From the NCBI GenBank assembly GCA_964016885.1, contig OZ024740.1, positions 384,772,001 through 384,836,000 on the forward strand: a stretch of 64,000 bases of DNA, in the 5' to 3' direction. The notes beneath the pieces are model-generated. The model was not told the DNA's origin, did no database searches, and worked only from the letters and a program-made list of their open reading frames with translations. Positions 2,932 to 64,000 of this stretch are shown here, piece by piece (the stretch's first letter is position 1; each line of letters begins with the position of its first letter). The position numbers and the translations under genes are program-made. Source of the DNA: Eledone cirrhosa. Its lineage: Eukaryota.

Positions 2932-3524
2932 TATATTAATAAGAGGAATTCCAACTTTGTCTGATTTACTCGTTTTATTTACAATCCTTTAAAATATATA
3001 TAATATGGTATTATAATGAAATAGTATGATAGAATATTAAATTCTAAGTATTAATTGAACAAGTACTTTCATGCTTTCGCAATCTTCAGGTTCATGATAT
3101 GTGGTGACAGTCGAGTTTGCAATTTTCAACTGTAATGAGATGGGTAAATTTACTACCTTTTATACATTTTATACAGAAAAAAGTGGCTCCAGAATGCAAA
3201 GCCCTGTAAACTGTATTTCGACCAATCTGATTGGTCGAAATACAGTTTACAGGGCTTTGCATTCTGGAGCCACTTTTTTCTGTATAAAATGTATAAAAGG
3301 TAGTAAATTTACCCATCTCATTACAGTTGAAAATTGCAAACTCGACTGTCACCACATATCATGAACCTGAAGATTGCGAAAGCATGAAAGTACTTGTTCA
3401 ATTAACACTTAGAATTTAATATTCTATCATACTATTTCATTATAATACCATATTATATATATTTTAAAGGATTGTAAATAAAACGAGTAAATCAGACAAA
3501 GTTGGAATTCCTCTTATTAATATA
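2932..3524. mobile_element. 593-bp near-perfect palindrome (fold-back) with a hammerhead in each arm
   Basis: Centre at 3228 (accaatc t gattggt); mirror ORFs 3092-3355(-) and 3101-3364(+) confirm the symmetry. Confidence 0.85.
3362..3400 (+). ncRNA. Minimal type I hammerhead ribozyme (mirror copy on - strand at 3056-3094)
   Basis: TGAAC-CTGAAGA-tTGC GAAA GCAt-GAAA-GTAC-TT-GTTCA; 5-bp stem I, GNRA-capped stem II, 1-bp stem III with palindromic GTAC loop. Confidence 0.88.
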
Positions 3525-10443: not shown

Positions 10444-13400
10444 ATGACCTCACTCAGAATAGGCAGCATAAATGCGCGTGGCTTGCGTCGTCATGGAAGC
10501 AGGGCCACCTGCTCAACGACCTCAGGTCACTAAACATAGATGTAGTGGCCATCAGCGAGACCAGAATCTCCGAAGCACGGGCCTTCGCACCGATCTTCGG
10601 CGGCTACGATGTGTACGCATCTCCCAGCCGTACGGAATCGGGGGGTGGAGTTGCTGTACTTTTTCGGAGAAGTTTGGATCTCGCCATCCGGGCCATCTTC
10701 CTGGACCCAGAAGGTAAGTTGGTGGTGCTAACGTGACCAGCGGAGACGGGCAATCTTTCAGGATAGTGGCCGTCTATGCCCCGAGAGGAGCAGTGCGGCC
10801 TGATTTCTTCCGGCGTCTGGAGACCTTTCTTGGAACGTCCTGCTCTTTAGTGTTAGTGGGCGACTGGAACGGGATCTTAGATGCACGCTGGGACTGTGTG
10901 GGATTAGCGGATAGGGGAGGAGGGTGCAAAAGCCTCACCAACCTGTTCAGGCGTTTTGAACTGTCTGACAGATACCGATTGGATTTCCCGAATGTGCCAA
11001 TGTGGACTTGGACAAATCGCATATGGTCATCCAGATCATATCTAGATAGAGTATTTTGTAGAGAAATAGATACGTCTAGCATAGGCTGTCCACAATTCAA
11101 GATAGTCAGCAACACGGACCACAAATTCGTGATCTGTGTGCTTGATTTAGATAGGCTTCATAGACGAGGACTCGGCTACTGGAAGCTAAACGCGTCCTTA
11201 CCAGCGCGCAAGGCTTACAGAGACCGGATGAGCGAACTAGTTAAGCGGGCGTTGACGGAGGCCATCGTCAACAACAAGTGATGGTTTGCTCTGAAAAGAG
11301 CAATTAGAATAGAGTCCATTAGGTTTAGTAAGGCTTTAGCAATAGAGAAAAATAGAGCAGAGGGAGAGAATTAGTTAGAAAATTATACGAGGCGCTTAGC
11401 ACAGGCATCGCGACCGACATACTTGCGGCGAAATTGGCCCTTCACCAATTCTTATATGCAAAGCACGAAGGCTGCATTGTCAGAGCTAGGGTGCATGCTC
11501 TCAGACACGAGGGGATGAAAGCCGTTCAATGGGCCCGAGTGGCGAAGGCACGTCGTGGCAACAAAGCCACGATCCGGTCTTTGGACCACGACGGGCGCAT
11601 GCTACTCGATCCCGGGAAAATGTGTGAAGCTTTTCAGCGACACTTCGGTCAGTTGTTCGGGGACAGCGGTGGACCGGATCGAGGGATGGACTTTAGTGTC
11701 TATCTCGACGGACTGCCGCGGCTCTCGGCCACTGAGGCGGAGTGTTGCGAAAAGCCGATAACAGCCGCTGAAGTACGGGAGGCAATGACTGGCTGCACAA
11801 GGGGTAAATCGCCTGGTTTGGATGGTCTGCCCTATGAACTTTACGTACAGGTGCCGGACATGTTCGGGGGCCTCTTGGCGGACGTCTCCTGCAACTGACA
11901 ACAGAACGGGAGAATTCCCAGCTCTGTGAGCCGAGGAGATGTGGCGCTGCTGAGAAAGGATCCGAACAAGGGGGATAACATAGATTATTTTAAGCCCATA
12001 ACTCTGCTAAACACAGAGTTCAAGATTTTGGCCAAGGTGCTAGCAAAGAGGTTGGCGCTTGTCGTTGGTGGTCTGGTGGGAGAGGCGCAGACATGCGCCA
12101 TTCCCGACAGATCCATCCACGACAACCTCCACCGAGGGAACCTGGCACGAGTGGGTCCTTGATCAATTTAGATCAGTCGAAAGCTTTCGATAGGGTCGAC
12201 CATAGTTACCTAGCGGCAGTCCTGAGGGCGGCTGGCTTTGGGCCCGTCTTCAGAGGCTGGATTGCTGCCATGCACAGCGACATCTACTCTGTGGTGAGAG
12301 TGAACGGTCACCTTTCGGAACCGTTCAACATCATGCGTTCCGTCCGCCAAGGATGTGCCCTCTCGTCCCTTTTCTACGTATTGACTCTCGAGCCATTACT
12401 GCACAAACTGGAGACGTTGAGGGGGGTCCCGCGCGAACTAGGATGCCGTAGGTCCGTTTTAGCATATGCGGACGATGTCACCCTAGTGGTGTCGAACGCC
12501 AAACACATCGAGGCGATCGGCACTACACTAAGAGAATACGAACCGGTGACAGGATCAATGATCACCAGGAAAAGTCAGTGGGCCTGCAGCTCGGCACCTG
12601 GAGAGCCAGGTCCATGCCGTCCAACAGCGTCGGCGGCCGCTGGACGGACGGACCGGTTAAATTGCTCGGAGTCTGGTTCGGTCCGGATCTCCAGACGGAC
12701 AAAAACTGGGACGAGGTGACGAGCAGGGTGGCTTCTCTCACCCAGAAATGGGCCGAGAGGAAGCTATCCCTGAAAGTTCGAGCTGAGGTGGCTAACGCGT
12801 ATATCGCGTCCGTCATCTACTACCGCCTGACCGTCGTACCTTGACCTAAGCCCCGCCAGACTGCGCTGGAGCGTTTGCTCTTTCGCCTTTTGTGGAAGGG
12901 ACGCGCTCCGATGGTCAGGCGGTCCATCTGCTGTCAACACCCGCTACGTGGAGTGCTGGGAATGCCGTGGCTGATGATGCGCAGACACGCGCTCAGGCTA
13001 CGACATCTCCACCTCTTCCTCGACGGTGATCAGGTGTGGTCGCCGTTTGCTAGGCGCGTCTTTCCCCAGCTCGTCTCCTTGACGGAGCTGCAGTCCAGGG
13101 TTAAGCGAAGATCGAGAGTGAGCGTTTGGAGACTGGAATGTCTTCAGGCGCTCACAGCCCTCGACCAATCGGGAAATGTGATCGGTGGAAACTCCAGCTT
13201 GGCGTTCTATAGAGGATTAGTGGAGGGGAAGAGCGACGACGTACCTGAGGAAACTCTAGGCGTCGACGAAAATCAACTAGCCAATCTCTTCGCAAGAACT
13301 TTCGGGCCGGGGCCTATGGACAACTTCCAGAAATCCCTAGCCCGGCAGTGCTACCGAGGAGCTTTGCCAGTTCGGGATAAACTCTACAGGCATGGAGGTG

Positions 13401-21072: not shown

Positions 21073-21183
21073 TATATATATATATATATATATATATGGA
21101 AAGTTATATTTAAATTGTTGGGTTACAACGAGTAAATATTTATAACTGATATAAAAGCACTCAACAAGTATTTGGAGTATATT

Positions 21184-21614
21184 TACGATATTAAATAAAT
21201 GGAAATTATATTTATAAAACCATATTTATTTCATTATATATATTTCAGGGATATCATATTAAAAATATGTTATGCCTTCTTCAGACAAAATACAATATAG
21301 ACAGTCTTATAAATAAATAGATTCGACATACCGTTCAACATCGACTTGCATTTGAAAAGTTGATTTGATACCAAATCAACTTTTCAAATGCAAGTCGATG
21401 TTGAACGGTATGTCGAATCTATTTATTTGATACCAAATCAACTTTTCAAATGCAAGTCGATGTTGAACGGTATGTCGAATCTATTTATTTATAAGACTGT
21501 CTATATTGTATTTTGTCTGAAGAAGGCATAACATATTTTTAATATGATATCCCTGAAATATATATAATGAAATAAATATGGTTTTATAAATATAATTTCC
21601 ATTTATTTAATATC

Positions 21615-21617
<3 letters not shown>
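21184..21617. mobile_element. Fold-back element with a hammerhead in each arm (+21509-21574, -21227-21292) and a tandem duplication next to the centre
   Basis: Arms are reverse complements; TATTTTGT-CTGAAGA-...-GAAA-TATATA-TA-ATGAAATA. Confidence 0.72.
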
Positions 21618-21663
<46 letters not shown>

Positions 21664-36099: not shown

Positions 36100-36725
36100 T
36101 GTGTGTATAAATAAATACATGTATATGTATATCTATATATATAAAATTAAGTATGTGTGTGTGTGTGTCTGTGTATTTCATATAGGGGCCTACATTTACG
36201 ACCGATTTTCATGAAACTTTACAGGCTCGTGAATTAGTCATCGGGGAGTCTTTTCTATATATCAGCGTATCGTTCTTTTTATTCCGGTGTCATTAAATAT
36301 TCAAAAATAAGTCAACCAAATACACAAAATCTTAGTTAAAACAAATTAAAGGGAAGTAAACCTTGATACCTAACAAGCAGGACAGAAGGAATTATTTCCC
36401 GTTGATAGTTACTCTAATCGGTTAAAACAATTGCCACACAATGACAAATGTCTTCTTGGTCGCTCTGTCAGCTAAAAATACATTGAACAAAATATTTAAG
36501 TAAAATCATCTTAAGAAACATCAACATTCTATTATGAGACACTACTAATGTAAAAGGACGAATGTAGGAGAAATCGTCAATCCATATAAACTTTCACCAT
36601 TAACTCAGCAGACGACATCACTTAATATCTACACTCCTACATCGATCTGTATGTTAATTCTCTCTCTCTCTCTCTATTATATATATATAATCTTTCTCTC
36701 TATTTTATATATATCTGTATATATA

Positions 36726-36783
36726 TAAATGTAAGTATGTATGTATACGTACATACATATATGTATACAGACGTACAGTAGCA

Positions 36784-36830
<47 letters not shown>

Positions 36831-37261
36831 GTACACATATATATATGCACGCATCAGTTTAGCGGATGCTTATTATAACGCCGCTTTGTTCGTTTGTAAA
36901 CAAACTGAACAGCCTGAATTTATGCCATACGGTGTTAAGGCAACCACGTCACCTTTTTGTTCAACACTGACACAGGAACGATGTACTAGTTTCAAGCTTG
37001 TTAGCTATCATCAGCACCGTATACCCATCTAACAGATAGTTGAACGTTCGAAAGTATATACTTTCCTTATGAAAATTAACGGCTGAGCAGCCTAATTTGC
37101 ATATTGAGTGAGTTAAATCGGTCAGGCATACCGAAAACGATAAGTTGAAAAAAAAAATGAAAACGAAATTTCATTTCTCACTCTTAGTATGGCACTTACA
37201 TAAATGTAAGTATGTATGTATACGTACATACATATATGTATACAGACGTACAGTAGCATGC

Positions 37262-37292
<31 letters not shown>

Positions 37293-38186
37293 TATACATA
37301 CAGGTACACATACATATATGCACGCACCAGTTTAGCGGACGCTTATTATAACGCCGCTTTGTTCGTTTGTAAACAAACTGAACAGCCTGAATTTATGCCA
37401 TACGGTGTTAAGGCAACCACGTCACCTTTTTGTTCAACACTGACACAGGAACGATGTACTAGTTTCAAGCTTGTTAGCTATCATCAGCACCGTATACCCA
37501 TCTAACAGATAGTTGAACGTTCGAAAGTATATACTTTCCTTATGAAAATTAACGGCTGAGCAGCCTAATTTGCATATTGAGCGAGTTAAATTGGTCAGGC
37601 ATACCGAAAACGATAAGTTGAAAAAAAATGAAAACGAAATTTCATTTCTCACTCTTAGTATGGCACTTACTTAAATGTAAGTATGTATGTATACGTACAT
37701 ACATATATGTATACAGACGTACAGTAGCATGCATATATATATACATATATATACATACAGGTACACATACATATATGCACGCATCAGTTTAGCGGACGCT
37801 TATTATAACGCCGCTTTGTTCGTTTGTAAACAAACTGAACAGCCTGAATTTATGCCATACGGTGTTAAGGCAACCACGTCACCTTTTTGTTAAACACTGA
37901 CACAGGAACGATGTACTAGTTTCAAGCTTGTTAGCTATCATCAGCACCGCATACCCATCTGCCAGATAGTTGAACGCTCGAAAGTATATACTTTCCTTAT
38001 GAAAATTAACGGCTGAGCAGCCTAATTTGCATATTGAGTGAGTTAAATCGGTCAGGCATACCGAAAACGATAAGTTGAAAAAAAATGAAAACGAAATTTC
38101 ATTTCTCACTCTTAGTATGGCACTTACTTAAATGTAAGTATGTATGTATACGTACATACATATATGTATACAGACGTACAGTAGCA

Positions 38187-38230
<44 letters not shown>

Positions 38231-38313
38231 CAGGTACACATACATATATGCACGCATCAGTTTAGCGGACGCTTAATATAACGCCGCTTTGTTCGTTTGT
38301 AAACAAACTGAAC
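36726..38313 (-). repeat. Tandem array (~3.4 units, 457-473 bp) of a hammerhead-containing retrozyme-like repeat homologous to the 467-bp satellite
   Basis: Repeats at 36978, 37451 and 37908; each has a HHR and ATGCAAAT on the - strand. Confidence 0.88.
36978..37020 (-). ncRNA. Minimal type I hammerhead (copies also at 37451-37493 and 37908-37950)
   Basis: ACGGTG-CTGATGA-t-AGCT aaca AGCT-t-GAAA-CTAG-TA-CATCGT. Confidence 0.85.
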
Positions 38314-38445
38314 AGACGTGGTTGCCTTAACACCGTATGGCGTAAATTCAGGCTGTTCAGTTTGTTTACAAACGAACAAAGCGGCTTTATAATAAGCGTC
38401 CGCTAAACTGATGCGTGCATATATGTATGTGTACCTGTATGTATA

Positions 38446-38542
<97 letters not shown>

Positions 38543-38661
38543 GCATGCTACTGTACGTCTGTATACATATATGTATGTACGTATACATACATACTTACAT
38601 TTAAGTAAGTGCCATACTAAGAGTGAGAAATGAAATTTCGTTTTCATTTTTTTTCAACTTA
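38314..38661 (+). repeat. Inverted partial unit closing the 36.7-38.3 kb array
   Basis: Reverse complement of the preceding unit (gacgtggttgccttaacaccgtatgg...tttcaacttat). Confidence 0.85.
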
Positions 38662-39913
38662 TTGTATATATATAAATTTATATACAATTTCACTCAACAT
38701 TTCGCCATTTGCTACACCTTACGACCGATTTTCAAGAAACTCGCCAGCACATGAATTTCTAACCAGGTTTTATTCCTACTTGGACTCCGTTCATCCCAGT
38801 TCACACTATTGACCTCTACTACAACCGGGTGTCAACGATAATTCTTTAACTTTTTAAGTCTACGATAAATTGTTACTTTGTACAATCCGGCTATACTGTT
38901 CTCTGCATTAATCTCTTTCATGGGTGCTATTCCAGACGTGCTTAAACTACGCTTTAGATAATACCTCCGAGGAAGAGTAACAAAATTGGTCGGAAAACGG
39001 TGCGAGGTAGAAGTATCACAAATAGACGAGAAAGTGTGCCACTACAAAATGCCGAAATAAGACGAACTAGAAACGCAATGTCCACGGACGCTGTACGCGC
39101 TGCAGAAACGGAGGATCGGCGCGTCCGCAGAGAGACAAGAGACGCTGTGTCGAAGGCTAGTGCACGAGCTTCTGAAAATGACGTTCAGTGCGTTCGCAGA
39201 CAAAGAAGAAACGCAATGTCGACGGCCAGTGCACGAGCATCTGAAAATGAGGTTCAGCGCGTTCGCAGACAAAGAAGAAACGCAATGTCGACGGCCAGTG
39301 CACGAGCTTCTGAAAATAAGGTTCAGCCCGTTCGCAGGCAAACAAGAAACGCAATGTCGATGGCCACTGCACGGGCTACGGAGACATAATCCGAAAGGTG
39401 TGATCGATTGCAGAGTAATCTTCAAAGAAGCCTTTCCAGAAATGGTCTTTCAAGGCCTTCCAGTTCGTGATGGCTACTTAAGGCGTTTGAATATAGCCCA
39501 ACCTTCAATTATGCCACCCATGCTCATGTGATCATTGGCGATATGTCCACCATTTGCACCTACTGCAAGCAATGAAGTGGCCAGGTGAACCATCTGGGAT
39601 GTGCTGCGCGAATGGAAGTTCAGCTTACCTTTCCTCCTTGATCCACCTGAGCCATTGAAGACGTATCTGGCAGGTGAAACAGCGGAGTCTAAGTACTTCC
39701 TTGAAAATATCCAGAAATACAAATGCGCCTTTCAGATGACATCGTTTGAAGCAAACATTGTTAAGGAAGACGGTTTGATGTCCACATTTAAAGTTGAGGG
39801 GCAACTGTGTGTGGTCATAGATGCGTCATCGAGAAGCAGTCGCCAAGATCAACACCTTTTCATCACAGCAGATATTATTTTACCTACCCAGGCAGCGCTG
39901 GGTACTGCTGCTA

Positions 39914-39914
<1 letters not shown>
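38662..39914 (+). mobile_element. Internally deleted Helitron retaining the RepHel N-terminus
   Basis: RASENxVQxVRRQRRNAMST repeats, then PPEPLKTYLAGETAESKYFLENIQKYKCAFQMTSF...FKVEGQ; 3' hairpin CCCAG gcagcg CTGGG and CTAG|T end; 5' end approximate. Confidence 0.8.
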
Positions 39915-39989
<75 letters not shown>

Positions 39990-42966: not shown

Positions 42967-44659
42967 GGAAAAAATGAAATTTCATTTCTCACTCTTAGTA
43001 CGGCTGATACTTAAATATAAGTATGTATGTACACGTACATACATATATGTATACAGACGTACACTAGTATGTATATACATACATACATGCACACATATAA
43101 ATATGTACGTATGGGTTTACCGAACATTTATTATAATGTTCGGTTAGTTTGTAAACAAACAGCCCGAATTAAGCCGTACAGTGTTCGGCAACCATGGTTG
43201 CCCTTTAGTTCAACACTAACAAAGGAAGGATGAACTAGTTTATAGCTTACTAGCAGTAAAGCCCGGCGTTGCTCGGGGTCGCTCAGTAGCTGTGTTAAAG
43301 TTACAATGTTAAGTTTCTTTTTTGGCTTAAAAACTGTCGTGTCTACTGTGCAGACTTGCATGTGGTGTTTTTGATTAATATTCCCTCAAACAACAATATG
43401 CCTTATGAAGTTAAGAAAACATAACGATAACCCGAATGTTATAACAAAAGAGGATGCTGGGGATAAAAACTGCACTGGTTATTTATTAACAAAGATCGAA
43501 AATGTAAACACTGCAACGCAGAGAAAAACATTAGCGTAACCAAATTATCAGTTATGTCTGTCTGCACGCCTATATCACCTCTCTGCACGACTGTCTGTCT
43601 GCACGCCTATATCAACTCTCTGCACGACTGTCTGTCTGCACGCCTATATCACCTCTCTGCACGACTGTCTGTCTGCACGCCTATATCACCTCTCTGCACG
43701 ACTGTCTGTCTGCACGCCTATATCATCTCTCTGCACGACTGTCTGTCTGCACGACTGTCTGTCTGCACGCCTAACGAAATTTACAGATACATATATTTTA
43801 AATAAACTTATATAATTTTTGCTTTTTTTTTACGAAATATTTGCTTGTTTTACGTAGTCTTTAAATAGACTTGTTTTCAAGTAAAAATATTGTTTTAAAA
43901 GGCTTTAAATGGAAATGAAGCAAAACGGAAGCTTAGTGTTCGAACTGATGAATTTTGCAGGTCAAAATTTTGCTGGCTCGACAACTGTTCGTGTATTGTG
44001 TTAATGTCATTTTAAACGCTGAGAAAGCCAGCGTAATTTTTTTTATTTTTGCCAGCGTAATTTTTTTAATTTTTGCACGCAGAAAATGTAAACAGAACGT
44101 AAGACGCTACGCTGAATGTAAACAGAACAAAGGGAAATCATTTTTTTTATTTTTGCACGCAGAAAATGTAAAGAGAACGTAAGACGCTACGCTGAATGTA
44201 AACAGAACAAAGGGAAATTACTGATCACTTACGCTCAAAAATCGATACATTATATTCGATGTCGTCAGATAGGGCGGGTCAATTTGAAATATTTTTTTCC
44301 GATGTCTTCGCTAGGGCTCAATGTACAAGTATAGCAATTTCGGTGCAATTCCGTGAGAGATTCTAAGAGGAGATGTGTGCCAAAAATCGATAGACAGACA
44401 GACAACCTCAGTTTTATATATATAGATTAGCACTCATCAGCACCGTAAACCTTCCTGTCAGTCGCTTGAACTTTTGAAAGTATATACTTTCCTCATGCAT
44501 ATTAATGACTGAGCAGCCTAATTTGCATATCGAGTGAGTTAGTCGGCCAGGCGTACCGAAAACGATAAATGGTAAAAAAGAAATTTCATTTCTCACTCTT
44601 AGTACGGCTGATACTTAAATATAAGTATGTATACGCACATACATATATGTATACAGACG

Positions 44660-44665
<6 letters not shown>
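42965..44665 (-). repeat. About 1.2 units of the retrozyme-like family, split by a Helitron
   Basis: 42965-43249 and 44427-44665 rejoin into a unit homologous to 36.7-38.3 kb, including atttgcat and the HHR. Confidence 0.8.
43250..44426 (-). mobile_element. Non-autonomous Helitron with an internal 37-bp tandem repeat (43555-43772)
   Basis: Minus strand A|TCTATATATATAAAA ... CCCGAGCAACGCCGGG ... CTAG|T; A|T target. Confidence 0.85.
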
Positions 44666-44735
<70 letters not shown>

Positions 44736-44742
<7 letters not shown>

Positions 44743-48568: not shown

Positions 48569-48587
48569 ATATATATGTATATATATA

Positions 48588-49315
<728 letters not shown>

Positions 49316-49829
49316 TTTATATATATATATATATATATATTGTTACACTTTGGGAGGGTCATGTTGCCAATAAGAAACACACGCACCAGTTGCTTTCACT
49401 TCAATTTAATTTATTAAATATTTATAAATTTCTGGTTGGTTGGTTGGTTCCACAACCAGATAGTTGTTTATATATATATAGTCATAGTTCTTTCGTCACA
49501 CACTCTGTGACCTCTTCAGTGACTGGGGATTTCTTTCTTCGTTTCTGTGCCTTTCCTTTCTTCTATCCTACGCCATTTTGTTTGTGTGTGGGTTGCGTGC
49601 TCAGTTTGCGCATGCGCCACATCCGGGTGTCTGTGTGTGTTTGTGTTCATTTTTCTATTTTTCTATTTATATTTTTCTATTTGTTTGTTTATTTATTTAT
49701 TTATTGTTGGTTGGTTGATTGTTCTATGTGTGTGTGTGTTTTCATTTTGTCTTGTGTGTGTTTTCATTTTGTGTGTGTTTTCAATTGTAAGTTGTTTGTT
49801 CTATGTGTGTGTGTGTTTTCATTTTGTCC

Positions 49830-51803
49830 TTAATTGTAAGTTGTGATGTTGCTGTTCCACTCATATTTTCTATTTAATTTTGGTTTTAATTCTTTTATGC
49901 TTACTGCCTCTGTAATTTGCCTAAACATTGCGTCTTTCTTGTGTGTGGATTCTATTTTTATTTCTATGCTCTCTAATTTACCCCTGTGTTCTATCTTAGC
50001 ATGTTGGTAGAGCACAGATGATTCTTTATTATCTTGGAGGTCTCGCCAGTGTTCATTTATTCGTTCCCCTATACTACGAGCTGTCTCACCTATGTACACT
50101 ACATTTTTGTTTCTACATTGTCCTTCAGTACATCTTATGCTATATACTACATTTCTAGTTTTACAGTTAATATGGGGGCTTATTTTACAGGTTATACATT
50201 TCTTATCTATACATGAGGGTCTTTGGAACGGGTATGTCTTGCTAATAAGTGTTTTTACGGAGGTACCAGGTCTTTCTACTATCTTAATATTGAGATTATG
50301 TTTCTTTAGGGCCCTTCTAAATTTGTAGGCTAGTTCGCCTCTAGGGGTTGTATTGATGAACATTACACTCTGGTATTTATTGCTATCATACCATGAGTTT
50401 ATTCTATTGGCCTTGTTCTTAGTTCTTTCTATTCTATTCCAAAATTTGCTCCTATACAAGGGGCAGGTCCCATTTATGTCATTATTTACCATTTTTTCCC
50501 ATTTGGTTCTGGCTCCTTTATACACTCTGATTCTATCTCTCTGATTGTAGCCAGAGAACTGCATACGGTGGATGAAGTGTTGTATGTGTCTCTCTAGTTC
50601 TTCGGGGTTGCACATGCGGGACACATTTCTCATCACCCGTACCAAATCCGCAATCAGTATGTTGATTTTGGTATGGTCCGAAATGGCCGAGTTTCGGTGG
50701 ATCAGATGTTTGGAAGTCATGGGTTTGGCATAATGGGAATGGAGGATTTGTTTTTGGTTGTTAATAGTATCTAACCAGAGCTCTGTGTCTAGTACAGGTA
50801 ATCGATGGTTGGGGTGTCTACTTGGGTAGTCTATAGTAACTCTAATGCTCTGGTGGATGGAGTTTGCTATTTGCTGGATGCTTTCCATTGTGTTTTTCTC
50901 TAGTTCCTGACTGTTCTTTAGTGGGGGTGTCTTAACTACGATGTTTATATCATCTACGTAGCGGGAGTACATTATCAGGGTTAAGCTGTCTTCTAATTGT
51001 TCATTAAGTTTTTGTTTAAGTCTACTGTCCCACCATACCATGAATAAGTTAGCTATGTCGCCTGCAATGCTAACACCAATGGCTGCTCCTTCCTCTTGGG
51101 CATATGTTTTACCATTAAATTTGAACATATGTTCCTTAAGGGTTAGTTTTATGCTGGCCCCTACCGCATGTGCAATCATTTTCTTCAGTTCATCGTGGTT
51201 TTCGGGTGTCCGTATGGCTCTGGTCCACCCGTTCCATCTATCTGTGTGGGTTTTCTTGGCCATTGAGGTAATGGTAGGTGGTCTGCCTCTTGCTGGTCTT
51301 GTAGGGCACAGGTTGCTAAGGTCATAAGTGTCTAGGTAACTATTACTATGGGTAAGCTTAAGTAGAAGTCCCAGCTCACTGGTATCAATCCCACGGAACT
51401 CAACCTTGCTCTCGCTGATCATTTCGACGCATTTCTCCACAGCAAAATCCACGTCAATAGATGGATACAGGGACACAACATCCATACTGCCTATTATGCA
51501 GTTTGTTAGGTCCCCAGATCGGTTACCCGCGCCGATTCTGCTGAGGAAGTCCTCCGTGCTGTCACACACATCTGGGGACATCTCAATGATGGGGCGTATG
51601 ATCAGGGAGAGGAAGTAGGACAGTCTGTAGTTACTAGCAATGTTAGCCCCACAGACTGGCCGTGTTGGTGGTCCCGCGACAGGGTCCCAGCCTGTTTTAT
51701 GGTCTTTACGAAGCCCATACAATGCCGGCACGTCATTGTTCCAGGCCTGGAAGTTGTTGGCAGTCCTTTTGTTGGGCTGCATTATATTTGTCCACATCAC
51801 CAT
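49830..51803 (-). CDS. Penelope-like RT + GIY-YIG protein (copy B, 5'-truncated)
   Basis: 657 aa; [47 protein letters not shown]...YIGETAR. Confidence 0.88.
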
Positions 51804-52052
51804 ATGGGCATTGAGGGTTTTTCTCTATCCTCATGCTCCTGTGGTATTACCTCTCTTGTGTTAGTGATGTGGGGTTGCATTGCCTGGATGTAGTTGGGCA
51901 GGCTGTCAACCGACATTCTGCCAGACTTGTCTGTTGGAAAGCATGCTATCTCTCCATTACGCGAGCGCTGCATGAGCTTACGCAAGCCATTTGCAGATTC
52001 TTCTCCCAGTTGCTGGGCCTCTATTCTATTATGCTTCTTGCTATACTGTTCT

Positions 52053-54251
52053 AGAATAGAGGCCCAGCAACTGGGAGAAGAATCTGCAAATGGCTTGCGT
52101 AAGCTCATGCAGCGCTCGCGTAATGGAGAGATAGCATGCTTTCCAACAGACAAGTCTGGCAGAATGTCGGTTGACAGCCTGCCAAACTACATCCAGGCAA
52201 TGCAACCCCACATCACTAACACAAGAGAGGTAACACCACAGGAGCATGAGGATAGAGAAAAAACCCTCAATGCCCATATGGTGATGTGGACAAATATAAT
52301 GCAGCCCAACAAAAGGACTGCCAACAACTTCCAGGCCTGGAACAATGACGTGCCGGCGTTGTATGGGCTTCGTAAAGACCATAAAACAGGCTGGGACCCT
52401 GTCGCGGGACCACCAACACGGCCAGTCTGTGGGGCTAACATTGCTAGTAACTACAGACCGTCCTACTTCCTCTCCCTGATCATACGCCCCATCATTGAGA
52501 TGTCCCCAGATGTGTGTGACAGCACGGAGGACATCCTCAGCAGAATCGGCGCGGGTAACCGATCTGGGGACCTAACAAACTGCATAATAGGCAGTATGGA
52601 TGTTGTGTCCCTGTATCCATCTATTGACGTGGATTTTGCTGTGGAGAAATGCGTCGAAATGATCAGCGAGAGCAAGGTTGAGTTCCGTGGGATTGATACC
52701 AGTGAGCTGGGACTTCTACTTAAGCTTACCCATAGTAATAGTTACCTAGACACTTATGACCTTAGCAACCTGTGCCCTACAAGACCAGCAAGAGGCAGAC
52801 CACCTACCATTACCTCAATGGCCAAGAAAACCCACACAGATAGATGGAACGGGTGGACCAGAGCCATACGGACACCCGAAAACCACGATGAACTGAAGAA
52901 AATGATTGCACATGCGGTAGGGGCCAGCATAAAACTAACCCTTAAGGAACATATGTTCAAATTTAATGGTAAAACATATGCCCAAGAGGAAGGAGCAGCC
53001 ATTGGTGTTAGCATTGCAGGCGACATAGCTAACTTATTCATGGTATGGTGGGACAGTAGACTTAAACAAAAACTTAATGAACAATTAGAAGACAGCTTAA
53101 CCCTGATAATGTACTCCCGCTACGTAGATGATATAAACATCGTAGTTAAGACACCCCCACTAAAGAACAGTCAGGAACTAGAGAAAAACACAATGGAAAG
53201 CATCCAGCAAATAGCAAACTCCATCCACCAGAGCATTAGAGTTACTATAGACTACCCAAGTAGACACCCCAACCATCGATTACCTGTACTAGACACAGAG
53301 CTCTGGTTAGATACTATTAACAACCAAAAACAAATCCTCCATTCCCATTATGCCAAACCCATGACTTCCAAACATCTGATCCACCGAAACTCGGCCATTT
53401 CGGACCATACCAAAATCAACATACTGATTCCGGATTTGGTACGGGTGATGAGAAATGTGTCCCGCATGTGCAACCCCGAAGAACTAGAGAGACACATACA
53501 ACACTTCATCCACCGTATGCAGTTCTCTGGCTACAATCAGAGAGATAGAATCAGAGTGTATAAAGGAGCCAGAACCAAATGGGAAAAAATGGTAAATAAT
53601 GACATAAATGGGACCTGCCCCTTGTATAGGAGCACATTTTGGAATAGAATAGAAAGAACTAAGAACAAGGCCAATAGAATAAACTCATGGTATGATAGCA
53701 ATAAATACCAGAGTGTAATGTTCATCAATACAACCCCTAGAGGCGAACTAGCCTACAAATTTAGAAGGGCCCTAAAGAAACATAATCTCAATATTAAGAT
53801 AGTAGAAAGACCTGGTACCTCCGTAAAAACACTTATTAGCAAGACATACCCGTTCCAAAGACCCTCATGTATAGATAAGAAATGTATAACCTGTAAAATA
53901 AGCCCCCATATTAACTGTAAAACTAGAAATGTAGTATATAGCATAAGATGTACTGAAGGACAATGTAGAAACAAAAATGTAGTGTACATAGGTGAGACAG
54001 CTCGTAGTATAGGGGAACGAATAAATGAACACTGGCGAGACCTCCAAGATAATAAAGAATCATCTGTGCTCTACCAACATGCTAAGATAGAACACAGGGG
54101 TAAATTAGAGAGCATAGAAATAAAAATAGAATCCACACACAAGAAAGACGCAATGTTTAGGCAAATTACAGAGGCAGTAAGCATAAAAGAATTAAAACCA
54201 AAATTAAATAGAAAATATGAGTGGAACAGCAACATCACAACTTACAATTAA
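52053..54251 (+). CDS. Penelope-like RT + GIY-YIG protein (copy C, 5'-truncated, open frame; possibly Naiad/Neptune-related)
   Basis: Uninterrupted from the fold-back centre to the stop; same motifs as copy B; the first ~53 aa of the 785-aa ORF come from the opposite arm. Confidence 0.9.
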   Translation, partial: RIEAQQLGEESANGLRKLMQRSRNGEIACFPTDKSGRMSVDSLPNYIQAMQPHITNTREVTPQEHEDREKTLNAHMVMWTNIMQPNKRTANNFQAWNNDVPALYGLRKDHKTGWDPVAGPPTRPVCGANIASNYRPSYFLSLIIRPIIEMSPDVCDSTEDILSRIGAGNRSGDLTNCIIGSMDVVSLYPSIDVDFAVEKCVEMISESKVEFRGIDTSELGLLLKLTHSNSYLDTYDLSNLCPTRPARGRPPTITSMAKKTHTDRWNGWTRAIRTPENHDELKKMIAHAVGASIKLTLKEHMFKFNGKTYAQEEGAAIGVSIAGDIANLFMVWWDSRLKQKLNEQLEDSLTLIMYSRYVDDINIVVKTPPLKNSQELEKNTMESIQQIANSIHQSIRVTIDYPSRHPNHRLPVLDTELWLDTINNQKQILHSHYAKPMTSKHLIHRNSAISDHTKINILIPDLVRVMRNVSRMCNPEELERHIQHFIHRMQFSGYNQRDRIRVYKGARTKWEKMVNNDINGTCPLYRSTFWNRIERTKNKANRINSWYDSNKYQSVMFINTTPRGELAYKFRRALKKHNLNIKIVERPGTSVKTLISKTYPFQRPSCIDKKCITCKISPHINCKTRNVVYSIRCTEGQCRNKNVVYIGETARSIGERINEHWRDLQDNKESSVLYQHAKIEHRGKLESIEIKIESTHKKDAMFRQITEAVSIKELKPKLNRKYEWNSNITTYN

Positions 54252-54556
54252 GGACAAAATGAAAACACACACACACATAGAACAAACAACTTACAATTGA
54301 AAACACACACAAAATGAAAACACACACAAGACAAAATGAAAACACACACACACATAGAACAAACAACCAACCAACAATAAATAAATAAATAAACAAACAA
54401 ATAGAAAAATATAAATAGAAAAATAGAAAAATGAACACAAACACACACAGACACCCGGATGTGGCGCATGCGCAAACTGAGCACGCAACCCACACACAAA
54501 CAAAATGGCGTAGGATAGAAGAAAGGAAAGGCACAGAAACGAAGAAAGAAATCCCC

Positions 54557-54601
54557 AGTCACTGAAGAGGTCACAGAGTGTGTGACGAAAGAACTATGAC
54601 T
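54557..54601 (+). ncRNA. pLTR minimal hammerhead of PLE copy C (mirrors at -49480-49524 and -55742-55786)
   Basis: AGTCA-CTGAAGAG-GTCACA gagtg TGTGAC-GAAA-GAAC-TA-TGACT. Confidence 0.85.
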
Positions 54602-54798
54602 ATATATATATAAACAACTATCTGGTTGTGGAACCAACCAACCAACCAGAAATTTATAAATATTTAATAAATTAAATTGAAGTGAAAGCAACTGGTGCGT
54701 GTGTTTCTTATTGGCAACATGACCCTCCCAAAGTGTAACAATATCGGTTTCAACACACGATTTCAGATAAAGAATCTTGCTAAACAAATTCAGAAACG

Positions 54799-54856
<58 letters not shown>

Positions 54857-54875: not shown

Positions 54876-56056
<1,181 letters not shown>

Positions 56057-56412
56057 TAACAACAACGAAACTAGTTCAATATTCCTTGTCTGGCTTTCTG
56101 GAGAATAGAGGAGAGGTGTTTCCTCAAAAACCAGTATGACTCTAAAAACCGGTTTGTCTGTGTGTTTACATACAGAATAGCTGGCCACTCACAGTAAAGT
56201 GACCAGTGAAAAAACTTGGTACACCTACATATGTATACGTGTGTGTATTCATATACATACTAGTATTTCAGTATACATATATGGATGTACATCTTTAACT
56301 TAATTGTTTAAGCGTCAGTCATACAAAAGTGAGTTACAAACGAAACGAAATTTAATTTCGTTTCGTTATTTGTTTTTATCGTCTCCGTTGAACCGGTACT
56401 TACTCACACTCT

Positions 56413-56420
56413 ATGCAAAT
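56413..56420 (+). promoter_or_regulatory. Octamer ATGCAAAT (snRNA-type distal element candidate), once per unit
   Basis: ctATGCAAATtag; also conserved in diverged family members at ~37097, ~37568, ~38025 and ~44521 (- strand). Confidence 0.55.
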
Positions 56421-56505
56421 TAGTCTGCCCACTACTAATTTTCATAGAAAAAGCATATAACGATATGTGCTTTTACGATTCTCTAGAGAGGCCGGAAGAT
56501 AGGTA

Positions 56506-56550
56506 AATATTGCTGATGAGTTGTAACAACAACGAAACTAGTTCAATATT
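56506..56550 (+). ncRNA. Minimal type I hammerhead ribozyme, repeated every 467 bp (16 complete copies)
   Basis: AATATTG-CTGATGA-GTTG taacaa CAAC-GAAA-CTAG-TT-CAATATT; predicted cleavage after 56543. Confidence 0.93.
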
Positions 56551-59500
56551 CCTTGTCTGGCTTTCTGGAGAATAGAGGAGAGGTGTTTCCTCAAAAACCA
56601 GTATGACTCTAAAAACCGGTTTGTCTGTGTGTTTACATACAGAATAGCTGGCCACTCACAGTAAAGTGACCAGTGAAAAAACTTGGTACACCTACATATG
56701 TATACGTGTGTGTATTCATATACATACTAGTATTTCAGTATACATATATGGATGTACATCTTTAACTTAATTGTTTAAGCGTCAGTCATACAAAAGTGAG
56801 TTACAAACGAAACGAAATTTAATTTCGTTTCGTTATTTGTTTTTATCGTCTCCGTTGAACCGGTACTTACTCACACTCTATGCAAATTAGTCTGCCCACT
56901 ACTAATTTTCATAGAAAAAGCATATAACGATATGTGCTTTTACGATTCTCTAGAGAGGCCGGAAGATAGGTAAATATTGCTGATGAGTTGTAACAACAAC
57001 GAAACTAGTTCAATATTCCTTGTCTGGCTTTCTGGAGAATAGAGGAGAGGTGTTTCCTCAAAAACCAGTATGACTCTAAAAACCGGTTTGTCTGTGTGTT
57101 TACATACAGAATAGCTGGCCACTCACAGTAAAGTGACCAGTGAAAAAACTTGGTACACCTACATATGTATACGTGTGTGTATTCATATACATACTAGTAT
57201 TTCAGTATACATATATGGATGTACATCTTTAACTTAATTGTTTAAGCGTCAGTCATACAAAAGTGAGTTACAAACGAAACGAAATTTAATTTCGTTTCGT
57301 TATTTGTTTTTATCGTCTCCGTTGAACCGGTACTTACTCACACTCTATGCAAATTAGTCTGCCCACTACTAATTTTCATAGAAAAAGCATATAACGATAT
57401 GTGCTTTTACGATTCTCTAGAGAGGCCGGAAGATAGGTAAATATTGCTGATGAGTTGTAACAACAACGAAACTAGTTCAATATTCCTTGTCTGGCTTTCT
57501 GGAGAATAGAGGAGAGGTGTTTCCTCAAAAACCAGTATGACTCTAAAAACCGGTTTGTCTGTGTGTTTACATACAGAATAGCTGGCCACTCACAGTAAAG
57601 TGACCAGTGAAAAAACTTGGTACACCTACATATGTATACGTGTGTGTATTCATATACATACTAGTATTTCAGTATACATATATGGATGTACATCTTTAAC
57701 TTAATTGTTTAAGCGTCAGTCATACAAAAGTGAGTTACAAACGAAACGAAATTTAATTTCGTTTCGTTATTTGTTTTTATCGTCTCCGTTGAACCGGTAC
57801 TTACTCACACTCTATGCAAATTAGTCTGCCCACTACTAATTTTCATAGAAAAAGCATATAACGATATGTGCTTTTACGATTCTCTAGAGAGGCCGGAAGA
57901 TAGGTAAATATTGCTGATGAGTTGTAACAACAACGAAACTAGTTCAATATTCCTTGTCTGGCTTTCTGGAGAATAGAGGAGAGGTGTTTCCTCAAAAACC
58001 AGTATGACTCTAAAAACCGGTTTGTCTGTGTGTTTACATACAGAATAGCTGGCCACTCACAGTAAAGTGACCAGTGAAAAAACTTGGTACACCTACATAT
58101 GTATACGTGTGTGTATTCATATACATACTAGTATTTCAGTATACATATATGGATGTACATCTTTAACTTAATTGTTTAAGCGTCAGTCATACAAAAGTGA
58201 GTTACAAACGAAACGAAATTTAATTTCGTTTCGTTATTTGTTTTTATCGTCTCCGTTGAACCGGTACTTACTCACACTCTATGCAAATTAGTCTGCCCAC
58301 TACTAATTTTCATAGAAAAAGCATATAACGATATGTGCTTTTACGATTCTCTAGAGAGGCCGGAAGATAGGTAAATATTGCTGATGAGTTGTAACAACAA
58401 CGAAACTAGTTCAATATTCCTTGTCTGGCTTTCTGGAGAATAGAGGAGAGGTGTTTCCTCAAAAACCAGTATGACTCTAAAAACCGGTTTGTCTGTGTGT
58501 TTACATACAGAATAGCTGGCCACTCACAGTAAAGTGACCAGTGAAAAAACTTGGTACACCTACATATGTATACGTGTGTGTATTCATATACATACTAGTA
58601 TTTCAGTATACATATATGGATGTACATCTTTAACTTAATTGTTTAAGCGTCAGTCATACAAAAGTGAGTTACAAACGAAACGAAATTTAATTTCGTTTCG
58701 TTATTTGTTTTTATCGTCTCCGTTGAACCGGTACTTACTCACACTCTATGCAAATTAGTCTGCCCACTACTAATTTTCATAGAAAAAGCATATAACGATA
58801 TGTGCTTTTACGATTCTCTAGAGAGGCCGGAAGATAGGTAAATATTGCTGATGAGTTGTAACAACAACGAAACTAGTTCAATATTCCTTGTCTGGCTTTC
58901 TGGAGAATAGAGGAGAGGTGTTTCCTCAAAAACCAGTATGACTCTAAAAACCGGTTTGTCTGTGTGTTTACATACAGAATAGCTGGCCACTCACAGTAAA
59001 GTGACCAGTGAAAAAACTTGGTACACCTACATATGTATACGTGTGTGTATTCATATACATACTAGTATTTCAGTATACATATATGGATGTACATCTTTAA
59101 CTTAATTGTTTAAGCGTCAGTCATACAAAAGTGAGTTACAAACGAAACGAAATTTAATTTCGTTTCGTTATTTGTTTTTATCGTCTCCGTTGAACCGGTA
59201 CTTACTCACACTCTATGCAAATTAGTCTGCCCACTACTAATTTTCATAGAAAAAGCATATAACGATATGTGCTTTTACGATTCTCTAGAGAGGCCGGAAG
59301 ATAGGTAAATATTGCTGATGAGTTGTAACAACAACGAAACTAGTTCAATATTCCTTGTCTGGCTTTCTGGAGAATAGAGGAGAGGTGTTTCCTCAAAAAC
59401 CAGTATGACTCTAAAAACCGGTTTGTCTGTGTGTTTACATACAGAATAGCTGGCCACTCACAGTAAAGTGACCAGTGAAAAAACTTGGTACACCTACATA

Positions 59501-62500
59501 TGTATACGTGTGTGTATTCATATACATACTAGTATTTCAGTATACATATATGGATGTACATCTTTAACTTAATTGTTTAAGCGTCAGTCATACAAAAGTG
59601 AGTTACAAACGAAACGAAATTTAATTTCGTTTCGTTATTTGTTTTTATCGTCTCCGTTGAACCGGTACTTACTCACACTCTATACAAATTAGTCTGCCCA
59701 CTACTAATTTTCATAGAAAAAGCATATAACGATATGTGCTTTTACGATTCTCTAGAGAGGCCGGAAGATAGGTAAATATTGCTGATGAGTTGTAACAACA
59801 ACGAAACTAGTTCAATATTCCTTGTCTGGCTTTCTGGAGAATAGAGGAGAGGTGTTTCCTCAAAAACCAGTATGACTCTAAAAACCGGTTTGTCTGTGTG
59901 TTTACATACAGAATAGCTGGCCACTCACAGTAAAGTGACCAGTGAAAAAACTTGGTACACCTACATATGTATACGTGTGTGTATTCATATACATACTAGT
60001 ATTTCAGTATACATATATGGATGTACATCTTTAACTTAATTGTTTAAGCGTCAGTCATACAAAAGTGAGTTACAAACGAAACGAAATTTAATTTCGTTTC
60101 GTTATTTGTTTTTATCGTCTCCGTTGAACCGGTACTTACTCACACTCTATGCAAATTAGTCTGCCCACTACTAATTTTCATAGAAAAAGCATATAACGAT
60201 ATGTGCTTTTACGATTCTCTAGAGAGGCCGGAAGATAGGTAAATATTGCTGATGAGTTGTAACAACAACGAAACTAGTTCAATATTCCTTGTCTGGCTTT
60301 CTGGAGAATAGAGGAGAGGTGTTTCCTCAAAAACCAGTATGACTCTAAAAACCGGTTTGTCTGTGTGTTTACATACAGAATAGCTGGCCACTCACAGTAA
60401 AGTGACCAGTGAAAAAACTTGGTACACCTACATATGTATACGTGTGTGTATTCATATACATACTAGTATTTCAGTATACATATATGGATGTACATCTTTA
60501 ACTTAATTGTTTAAGCGTCAGTCATACAAAAGTGAGTTACAAACGAAACGAAATTTAATTTCGTTTCGTTATTTGTTTTTATCGTCTCCGTTGAACCGGT
60601 ACTTACTCACACTCTATGCAAATTAGTCTGCCCACTACTAATTTTCATAGAAAAAGCATATAACGATATGTGCTTTTACGATTCTCTAGAGAGGCCGGAA
60701 GATAGGTAAATATTGCTGATGAGTTGTAACAACAACGAAACTAGTTCAATATTCCTTGTCTGGCTTTCTGGAGAATAGAGGAGAGGTGTTTCCTCAAAAA
60801 CCAGTATGACTCTAAAAACCGGTTTGTCTGTGTGTTTACATACAGAATAGCTGGCCACTCACAGTAAAGTGACCAGTGAAAAAACTTGGTACACCTACAT
60901 ATGTATACGTGTGTGTATTCATATACATACTAGTATTTCAGTATACATATATGGATGTACATCTTTAACTTAATTGTTTAAGCGTCAGTCATACAAAAGT
61001 GAGTTACAAACGAAACGAAATTTAATTTCGTTTCGTTATTTGTTTTTATCGTCTCCGTTGAACCGGTACTTACTCACACTCTATGCAAATTAGTCTGCCC
61101 ACTACTAATTTTCATAGAAAAAGCATATAACGATATGTGCTTTTACGATTCTCTAGAGAGGCCGGAAGATAGGTAAATATTGCTGATGAGTTGTAACAAC
61201 AACGAAACTAGTTCAATATTCCTTGTCTGGCTTTCTGGAGAATAGAGGAGAGGTGTTTCCTCAAAAACCAGTATGACTCTAAAAACCGGTTTGTCTGTGT
61301 GTTTACATACAGAATAGCTGGCCACTCACAGTAAAGTGACCAGTGAAAAAACTTGGTACACCTACATATGTATACGTGTGTGTATTCATATACATACTAG
61401 TATTTCAGTATACATATATGGATGTACATCTTTAACTTAATTGTTTAAGCGTCAGTCATACAAAAGTGAGTTACAAACGAAACGAAATTTAATTTCGTTT
61501 CGTTATTTGTTTTTATCGTCTCCGTTGAACCGGTACTTACTCACACTCTATGCAAATTAGTCTGCCCACTACTAATTTTCATAGAAAAAGCATATAACGA
61601 TATGTGCTTTTACGATTCTCTAGAGAGGCCGGAAGATAGGTAAATATTGCTGATGAGTTGTAACAACAACGAAACTAGTTCAATATTCCTTGTCTGGCTT
61701 TCTGGAGAATAGAGGAGAGGTGTTTCCTCAAAAACCAGTATGACTCTAAAAACCGGTTTGTCTGTGTGTTTACATACAGAATAGCTGGCCACTCACAGTA
61801 AAGTGACCAGTGAAAAAACTTGGTACACCTACATATGTATACGTGTGTGTATTCATATACATACTAGTATTTCAGTATACATATATGGATGTACATCTTT
61901 AACTTAATTGTTTAAGCGTCAGTCATACAAAAGTGAGTTACAAACGAAACGAAATTTAATTTCGTTTCGTTATTTGTTTTTATCGTCTCCGTTGAACCGG
62001 TACTTACTCACACTCTATGCAAATTAGTCTGCCCACTACTAATTTTCATAGAAAAAGCATATAACGATATGTGCTTTTACGATTCTCTAGAGAGGCCGGA
62101 AGATAGGTAAATATTGCTGATGAGTTGTAACAACAACGAAACTAGTTCAATATTCCTTGTCTGGCTTTCTGGAGAATAGAGGAGAGGTGTTTCCTCAAAA
62201 ACCAGTATGACTCTAAAAACCGGTTTGTCTGTGTGTTTACATACAGAATAGCTGGCCACTCACAGTAAAGTGACCAGTGAAAAAACTTGGTACACCTACA
62301 TATGTATACGTGTGTGTATTCATATACATACTAGTATTTCAGTATACATATATGGATGTACATCTTTAACTTAATTGTTTAAGCGTCAGTCATACAAAAG
62401 TGAGTTACAAACGAAACGAAATTTAATTTCGTTTCGTTATTTGTTTTTATCGTCTCCGTTGAACCGGTACTTACTCACACTCTATGCAAATTAGTCTGCC

Positions 62501-64000
62501 CACTACTAATTTTCATAGAAAAAGCATATAACGATATGTGCTTTTACGATTCTCTAGAGAGGCCGGAAGATAGGTAAATATTGCTGATGAGTTGTAACAA
62601 CAACGAAACTAGTTCAATATTCCTTGTCTGGCTTTCTGGAGAATAGAGGAGAGGTGTTTCCTCAAAAACCAGTATGACTCTAAAAACCGGTTTGTCTGTG
62701 TGTTTACATACAGAATAGCTGGCCACTCACAGTAAAGTGACCAGTGAAAAAACTTGGTACACCTACATATGTATACGTGTGTGTATTCATATACATACTA
62801 GTATTTCAGTATACATATATGGATGTACATCTTTAACTTAATTGTTTAAGCGTCAGTCATACAAAAGTGAGTTACAAACGAAACGAAATTTAATTTCGTT
62901 TCGTTATTTGTTTTTATCGTCTCCGTTGAACCGGTACTTACTCACACTCTATGCAAATTAGTCTGCCCACTACTAATTTTCATAGAAAAAGCATATAACG
63001 ATATGTGCTTTTACGATTCTCTAGAGAGGCCGGAAGATAGGTAAATATTGCTGATGAGTTGTAACAACAACGAAACTAGTTCAATATTCCTTGTCTGGCT
63101 TTCTGGAGAATAGAGGAGAGGTGTTTCCTCAAAAACCAGTATGACTCTAAAAACCGGTTTGTCTGTGTGTTTACATACAGAATAGCTGGCCACTCACAGT
63201 AAAGTGACCAGTGAAAAAACTTGGTACACCTACATATGTATACGTGTGTGTATTCATATACATACTAGTATTTCAGTATACATATATGGATGTACATCTT
63301 TAACTTAATTGTTTAAGCGTCAGTCATACAAAAGTGAGTTACAAACGAAACGAAATTTAATTTCGTTTCGTTATTTGTTTTTATCGTCTCCGTTGAACCG
63401 GTACTTACTCACACTCTATACAAATTAGTCTGCCCACTACTAATTTTCATAGAAAAAGCATATAACGATATGTGCTTTTACGATTCTCTAGAGAGGCCGG
63501 AAGATAGGTAAATATTGCTGATGAGTTGTAACAACAACGAAACTAGTTCAATATTCCTTGTCTGGCTTTCTGGAGAATAGAGGAGAGGTGTTTCCTCAAA
63601 AACCAGTATGACTCTAAAAACCGGTTTGTCTGTGTGTTTACATACAGAATAGCTGGCCACTCACAGTAAAGTGACCAGTGAAAAAACTTGGTACACCTAC
63701 ATATGTATACGTGTGTGTATTCATATACATACTAGTATTTCAGTATACATATATGGATGTACATCTTTAACTTAATTGTTTAAGCGTCAGTCATACAAAA
63801 GTGAGTTACAAACGAAACGAAATTTAATTTCGTTTCGTTATTTGTTTTTATCGTCTCCGTTGAACCGGTACTTACTCACACTCTATGCAAATTAGTCTGC
63901 CCACTACTAATTTTCATAGAAAAAGCATATAACGATATGTGCTTTTACGATTCTCTAGAGAGGCCGGAAGATAGGTAAATATTGCTGATGAGTTGTAACA

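Follow-up and report, generated by a model that had tools for sequence, protein, structure and literature searches.

A hammerhead-bearing tandem array with an inverted end in Eledone cirrhosa: a likely retrozyme, probably moved by a Penelope-like element

A tandem array on contig OZ024740.1 of the octopus Eledone cirrhosa (assembly GCA_964016885.1) ends in an inverted partial copy of its own unit. This raises the question of what kind of element it is and which enzyme placed it there. The window, that is the whole stretch of DNA analysed, covers 64,000 nucleotides (384,772,001 to 384,836,000 of the forward strand), and all coordinates below refer to it. Animal retrozymes are well described and another family, in octopus, would be routine; what this locus adds is a different kind of evidence on the mobilising enzyme, namely the shape of the insertion. 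Penelope-like elements (PLEs) were called ‘a strong candidate’ for moving retrozymes in 2020, from co-occurrence (PMC7229834, in the parts covered here), while a later study argues from homology and, in its covered parts, deems the mechanism unsettled (10.64898/2026.07.22.740005). The reading developed here is that the array, family A, is a non-LTR retrozyme that was probably inserted in trans by a PLE (RT plus GIY-YIG) via target-primed reverse transcription. Our literature search found no cephalopod retrozyme; the supplements of retrozyme papers could list one, and the one work found on cephalopods, Penelope and hammerheads together concerns Naiads.

The repeat array and its hammerhead

36726..38315, minus strand: long arm of family A, 3.4 tandem retrozyme units (tandem repeat detection), lying between unit position 72 and the short 3' end site at 243
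37904..37955, minus strand: first type I hammerhead, with C3 at 37944 and cleavage predicted after 37914
37447..37498, minus strand: second type I hammerhead, with C3 at 37487 and cleavage predicted after 37457; helix I of 6 bp, U·U at 10.1–11.1, palindromic helix III hexamer, GUA triplet
36974..37025, minus strand: third type I hammerhead, with C3 at 37014 and cleavage predicted after 36984
56052..64000, plus strand: sister array B with 17 copies of a 467-nt unit, 14 identical among the 16 that are complete; G10.1–C11.1, GUU triplet

Tandem repeat detection places the array at 36725–38315, with a period of 473/457, 3.4 copies and 95% matches. The H17 positions of its hammerheads, on the minus strand, are 37914, 37457 and 36984, giving spacings of 457 and 473 nt. 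The initial annotation had described about 3.4 minus-strand units of 457–473 bp sharing a set of blocks with a 467-bp unit, and every block it named is present. It had also named a non-significant pairwise alignment as the outcome that would tell against this kinship. That alignment, when run, has 304 identical columns out of 426 aligned and a local score of 259, which none of 500 dinucleotide shuffles reaches (mean 64.9, maximum 100.5; z 23). With the hammerhead and microsatellite segments removed, the two remaining segments still give z values of 7.1 and 13.1.

A retrozyme is expected to have two or more units in succession that each carry a complete hammerhead, and family A has three hammerheads. 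The interval 36726–38662 is non-coding—its single 113-aa stop-to-stop frame lies over a microsatellite—and the insert has a GC content of 0.33–0.38 and no LTR architecture, its ends forming an inverted rather than a direct repeat. The units differ by 1–2% (5–8 positions per pair), and neighbouring units share derived variants. On these sequence-level tests family A is likely to be an animal non-LTR retrozyme.

In the motif, helix I has 6 bp and, beyond a bulge, a further 2 bp distally; then come the core CUGAUGA, a four-position helix II capped by a loop of 6 nt, the GAAA box, the palindrome ACUAGU as helix III, and H17. The type I core (CUGANGA, GAAA, NUH) and helices I and II are present in all three copies, with GUA as the triplet; helix I contains a G·U wobble, and the first copy has a second. 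This agrees with the anatomy described for metazoan type I hammerheads: a 6-bp helix I, a four-position helix II and a short palindromic helix III (PMC4209133).

In register, stem II of family A reads U·U, A-U, G-C, C-G and that of family B reads G-C, U-A, U-A, G-C. The pairing proposed initially (AGCT/AGCT versus GTTG/CAAC) was off by one base, which conceals the U·U at 10.1–11.1. The closing pair G10.1–C11.1, described as highly conserved (PMC4209133), is thus absent from A and present in B. The 6-nt loop is common to both families, as had been claimed for the core and loop together; the claim does not extend to the cleavage triplet, which is GUA in A and GUU in B.

That the stems differ in sequence and still pair is borne out. 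Six pairs in helices I and II (three in each) show two-sided changes in A relative to B, with pairing kept at every one. None of 500 shuffles reaches six of six and slid controls reach 0–1, although the shuffles ignore relatedness and the whole is one comparison of two lineages; the covariation is therefore below R-scape grade. Within these terms, the earlier proposal that the ribozyme fold has been under selection across the two subfamilies is supported by their sequences.

No match at the Rfam gathering level to a hammerhead occurs in the window for the A, B or PLE motifs. The best is to HH9, at 20.2 bits (E 0.081, gathering 52), found on two of the three family A copies among the best 150 of 183 matches. 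The hammerhead assignment of family A therefore stands on the motif and the covariation. Rfam matches at E 10, mostly microsatellite-driven miRNA, were discarded.

Closing helix III in a family A monomer would cost +5.4 kcal/mol, whereas the self-duplex of the hexamer is favourable at -4.8 kcal/mol. For this reason the hammerhead is predicted by the model to act as a dimer, as is described for metazoan type I hammerheads (PMC4209133). The axolotl hammerhead HHR_Amex2, whose helix II has U·U at its base too, cleaves 22% as a monomer and better as a dimer (PMC7229834, in the parts covered). Since a natural U·U variant cleaves, the mismatch is predicted, by analogy, to lower the rate of family A cleavage while type I membership is kept. 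In the predicted folds of family A the hammerhead core is sequestered.

The predicted RNA, the octamer and related copies

37457..37913, minus strand: predicted 457-nt monomer between two cut sites; branched multi-hairpin circular fold, z -5.7
36984..37456, minus strand: predicted 473-nt monomer with a longer TA tract; circular fold z -9.1
37568..37575, minus strand (also 38025–38032 and 37095–37102): octamer ATGCAAAT, 5' arm of a hairpin common to the sister unit; candidate promoter element
42971..44735, minus strand: decayed copy A', 78–80% identical; GAAA box mutated, hammerhead loop II split by a 1.18-kb Helitron-like insert (44426 to 43250)

Circular folds have z values of -5.7 and -9.1 for the A monomers, where the TA tract inflates the score, and -8.7 for B, as against -3.3 and -5.7 for the antisense (60 shuffles each). 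Hairpins appear by eye at corresponding places in A, A' and B. In a pair-transfer test, which scores the pairs predicted on one sequence on the other, whole units of A and B gave p values of 0.002 and 0.004, and A against the 3' half of A' kept 58 of 63 pairs (p 1e-4). The 5' half of A' gave no signal (p 1.0), the A/B comparison minus the hammerhead gave p values of 0.055 and 0.51, neither of them significant, and the whole-unit test is passed by the antisense strand as well. On account of these results, structure outside the hammerhead is graded as likely, on modelled folds, to be conserved among A, A' and B.

The octamer ATGCAAAT is found in A, in A' and in 15 of 17 B units, against 0.03 expected per unit. 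Its block is no longer than other identical A/B blocks, which measure 13, 11 and 11 nt, and it doubles as a hairpin arm, so that its role as a promoter element, drawn by analogy, is a possible one and serves as a lead. No PSE was identified near the family A octamer. A Pol III promoter was considered and dropped, on the inference that T-runs within the unit would stop transcripts short of a full monomer.

Two variations touch the octamer region. Among the 16 complete units of array B, the sole variable site (2 of 16) abolishes the octamer, and the two units lie exactly eight periods apart; this spacing may reflect a higher-order repeat or an assembly effect. In family A the 3' arm of the octamer hairpin (37541–37551) carries, in run X1, two common variants at 37545 and 37547 that look linked, each at about 54% of depth; either form keeps one mismatch and lies one base from an octamer.

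Of 24 runs, four were compared with one family A unit and gave matching contigs, numbering 4697 (X1), 71, 21 and 2; the 2 (X6) span 36 nt and are not counted as carrying the family, and the 21 (X5) are of low depth and of no use for host range. Across the four runs there are 37 variant rows, in which hammerhead variants fall at N7, in loop II, at helix I position 2.3 and in the bulge or distal stem. N7 is the sole core position that varies and no invariant core base is hit; the rows are few, and this agreement with core constraint is consistent with it without reaching significance. No strand-change joint appears among the contigs of these runs, which are unable to show absence. A hammerhead pattern scan of metagenome contigs gave 0 matches. 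The view that the family is dispersed and mobile rather than a static satellite gains from the copy at 42971–44735, from the thousands of variant contigs in one run and from the 15-nt duplication described below.

The 5' part of copy A' was not found within the 64-kb window. The insert within it (43250–44426) begins with TC and ends with CTAG after a small GC hairpin, lies between A and T and has no duplication; these we take to be Helitron-type ends. At 44735 (44660–44738) a PLE short end lies within a (TA)n tract inside copy A', and therefore a PLE appears to have inserted into this retrozyme copy.

The insertion and the enzyme behind it

36716..36730, unstranded: left copy of the 15-nt target-site duplication (TSD), an exact match to 38663–38677; its last 6 nt also match the 3' end of the element
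38315..38662, plus strand: inverted arm, unit positions 34–301, without a hammerhead; joined head-to-head to the long arm via one common base, 38 nt out of register
38605..38662, plus strand: 58-nt extension, a candidate PLE-type tail, at the end of the inverted arm alone; stops at the long 3' end site
38663..38677, unstranded: right copy of the 15-nt TSD, abutting the inverted arm

The inverted partial unit noted at the end of the array is thus an arm covering unit positions 34–301. Set against the closest unit, it has 2 substitutions over 348 positions and a different TA length, and these exclude a folded-back read. The two arms meet at unit positions 72 and 34. Both outer ends of the insert are RNA 3' ends, at unit positions 243 (short) and 301 (long), offset by 58 nt in the arm and the first unit and by 60 in the second. 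The long site has been seen three times: in the inverted arm, at the 3' end of copy A' (42971), where (TA)n follows, and as a loose end in run X4, probably on one contig. The short site has been seen once, and lies within 37665–37775, a stretch excluded from the contig comparison as repeat. TTA[AT] sites number 7 per family A unit. By our own estimates an end offset of 30–85 nt has a chance of about 0.2–0.3 and an in-register junction one of about 0.17. The insert brings neither a poly(A) nor a simple-repeat tail with it.

Array and inverted arm together are bracketed by the 15-nt direct repeat, which has no further plus-strand occurrence in the 64 kb and exceeds the TSD of more than 4 bp expected of a non-LTR retrozyme. 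The 15-mer is AT-rich and of low complexity. Among random pairs a match of this kind arises in 6 of 1500, under a strict fixed-register null in 30 of 4164 (two of which are this pair) and, under a loose null with free sliding among short TA runs, in 203 of 2082.

PLE insertions, in the published descriptions covered, comprise an inverted 5'-truncated copy, a tail on one end and a TSD (PMC3846280; 10.1101/2021.04.23.441226). The tail length is the distance between two internal RT start sites, with both strands cut and extended (PMC11167929), and published tails measure 30–40 nt (10.1101/2021.04.23.441226; PMC11167929). The suggestion that the family A inversion is PLE-like is supported by the candidate one-sided tail and by the near-register junction. 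A PLE-type neighbour lies in the window:

51894..54800, plus strand: Penelope-like element with RT, CX4CXXC linker, GIY-YIG and terminal repeat; its hammerhead, of the minimal type, is at 54562 and its tail measures 60 nt; outside the family A insert

Its RT and GIY-YIG both fall below the Pfam cut-off (E 2.5e-4); the RT protein has its best match in a protein of Octopus vulgaris (69% identity, against 49% for the second match). The CX4CXXC motif is a mark of the Neptune and Nematis PLE clades (10.1101/2021.04.23.441226, in the parts covered). The element is a candidate source of the enzyme for family A. All ten copies of this element's terminal repeat in the window end at two sites 60 nt apart (six short, four long), and each of three independent inverted PLE pairs, a local duplicate removed, has one short and one long end. 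The family A offset of 58–60 nt fits this pattern, which suggests a PLE-type tail, seen once and at a chance of about 0.2–0.3. In three small hammerhead-like palindromes one side runs straight into (TA)n and the other reaches it after 67, 80 or 84 nt; since local tails range this widely the 60-nt match names no single partner. Spacers between palindrome arms in the window are 0, 1, 23 and 42 nt, that of the family A insert being 37. On either strand neither A nor B has detectable similarity to the neighbour's terminal repeat, with 49–167 of 200 shuffles reaching the score.

The window is rich in related structures. The three small palindromes (1027–1444, 2932–3524 and 21178–21623) are perfect; both arms hold hammerhead-like motifs, and on one side an extension precedes (TA)n. 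They are likely to be non-autonomous PLE derivatives; the motifs at 1384 and 3367 have U·U at the base of helix II. Further hammerhead-like motifs at 21754, 21905 and 22365 form another family, in opposite orientations and near TA tracts. Between 45243 and 55602 lie nested PLE palindromes, including arms of 2486 nt with 100% complementarity and a 1.2-kb duplicate at a distance of 6.3 kb, which may reflect recent activity or an assembly effect. At 56052–56057, where a 6-nt microhomology links array B to an inverted PLE terminal repeat, the array opens within hammerhead helix II. Such a join could come from a template switch or from B having entered a duplicated PLE arm. A chimeric twin-priming product was considered for this junction and set aside; the PLE arm lies within the 1.2-kb duplicate (97%) of 48587–49830, so that insertion of B with 5' microhomology suffices. 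The DNA flanking the family A insert (36100–36715 and 38678–39920) has a 23-nt motif on both sides and a 69-nt tandem repeat. Its motifs resemble those of a decayed Helitron-type element, an identity for which Pfam gave no support.

From the repeat, the motif, the compensatory pairs, the duplication, the inversion and the end offset, all of which are observed, we infer transcription, cleavage, a circle and an enzyme acting as follows. A multimeric family A transcript would be cut where two hammerheads pair via the palindromic helix III, yielding monomers of 457–473 nt which a host ligase would circularise. The PLE protein would then nick both strands of an AT-rich target, 15 nt apart, and each nick would prime one cDNA at an internal site, one at unit position 243 and the other at 301, some 60 nt away. 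Repeated passes of one cDNA on a circle or multimer would give the long arm, and the head-to-head joining of the two cDNAs, nearly in register, would leave an inverted arm with a one-sided tail; later gain or loss of whole units may alter the arm lengths. The long arm is three units longer than the inverted arm and still in register, a difference that rolling on a circle or later unit-length exchange would each allow. One pass on a single circle would be insufficient, as the units differ at 5–8 positions per pair and neighbours share variants, and later exchange or a mixed template would be needed.

It is also conceivable, if unlikely, that a PLE moves family A while the hammerhead is largely silent, through linear read-through transcripts and unequal DNA exchange with no circle. 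This is near the model of Li et al. (2026), in which a terminal repeat amplifies locally; the absence of similarity between family A and the neighbouring PLE terminal repeat does not favour it. The derived variants common to neighbouring units would suit it, as would the anole PLE, for whose insertion in vitro hammerhead cleavage is dispensable (PMC11167929, in the parts covered), and the Xenopus dimers, of which one in nine cleaved in vitro, leaving eight uncleaved (10.64898/2026.07.22.740005, likewise). The U·U mismatch and weak helix III point the same way, but the mismatch has an active precedent (PMC7229834, in the covered parts). The predicted folds sequester the core, yet that core has been kept over 30–40% divergence with six of six compensatory pairs, and among contigs of the four runs N7 alone varies in it.

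Twin priming by L1 likewise inverts the 5' part and leaves a duplication of some 15 nt. A LINE could therefore have inserted family A in this way, which we consider improbable. The window holds RT-bearing ORFs lacking a GIY-YIG match (4544–6100 and 11994–12716), and LINEs are left possible in the covered parts of PMC7229834; the 6-nt match between the duplication and the element's end would also suit such priming. Twin priming expects the end of the inverted piece to equal the start of the forward piece, whereas the positions found, 301 and 72, are about 230 nt apart. In the RNA the two pieces do not adjoin, and the insert lacks a poly(A) or simple-repeat tail, so that a LINE fits less well; the 5' ends are in register, like those of the PLE palindromes in the window.

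A static satellite with a repair-made fold-back, or an assembly chimera, with the 15-mer match due to chance in AT-rich DNA, is very improbable: the 15-mer is of low complexity with a permissive loose null (203/2082), and palindromes are frequent in the window, but the strict null (30/4164), the 2 of 348 differences and altered TA length of the arm, and the other flanks of further copies stand against it.

Insertion by a PLE can be taken a step further, in a proposal that we hold tentatively and think somewhat less probable than its contrary. Octopod retrozymes may carry their own pair of PLE-type RT start sites about 60 nt apart, and may be copied in trans by a Neptune/Nematis-type PLE with no detectable common sequence, as SINE-like parasites of the PLE. 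The PLE reading predicts a countable trait: throughout the family the two arms should stop at different fixed 3' ends, some 60 nt from each other. If the proposal of parasitism is true, the enzyme behind the movement of animal retrozymes would be identified by a fingerprint of inverted arm, tail and duplication, and the neighbouring RT–GIY-YIG region, which is intact, would form with the near-identical array B a matched enzyme and template pair for reconstitution. Families A (U·U, GUA) and B (G-C, GUU) and the decayed A' also form a natural set bearing on how much catalysis a retrozyme needs.

Comparison with known systems

The promoter of newt satellite 2 reportedly contains an octamer. This satellite is a hammerhead-bearing tandem repeat transcribed from an internal snRNA-type promoter (Coats 1994, via PMC2220036, as far as covered). 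The octamer in families A, A' and B recalls it, the A/B octamer being also a hairpin arm.

Metazoan non-LTR retrozymes (PMC7229834) resemble family A closely: in the parts covered their tandem units are non-coding, each bearing one canonical type I hammerhead, and they have GC below 45%, a highly self-paired predicted circle, a TSD of more than 4 bp and PLEs in the same genome. The U·U at the base of helix II is also a feature of axolotl HHR_Amex2, and the one-pair helix III with a palindromic tetraloop of HHR_Amex1 resembles that of family A. The family A units, at 457–473 nt, are slightly longer than the RNAs of 170–400 nt reported there, and the word ‘cephalopod’ is absent from that main text as covered. 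PLEs are proposed there from co-occurrence, and the covered parts do not describe an inverted arm or tail like the arm and candidate tail of family A; our search found no published account of an inverted or tailed animal retrozyme insertion.

The vertebrate retrozymes of Li, Clavereau and Pollet (2026, 10.64898/2026.07.22.740005) are, like family A, tandem type I repeats beside PLEs. Few-unit arrays are the commonest vertebrate form, and 24 of 57 Xenopus families match repeats. That study, which in its covered parts includes no mollusc, argues from co-occurrence and terminal-repeat homology, whereas the evidence for family A is insertion anatomy, with no homology to the neighbour's terminal repeat.

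Insertions of EN+ PLEs (PMC3846280; 10.1101/2021.04.23.441226; PMC11167929) are described, in the parts covered, with a TSD of 8–10 bp in rotifer examples, internal RT initiation at two sites and mobilisation in trans. The published mobilisation in trans uses the element's own terminal repeats, whereas family A lacks such homology to its neighbour. Family A further differs in having no ORF, a canonical rather than a minimal hammerhead, and a candidate tail of 58–60 rather than 30–40 nt. It shares with these elements the head-to-head inverted, 5'-truncated copy and the AT-rich target, and its candidate tail, too, is one-sided.
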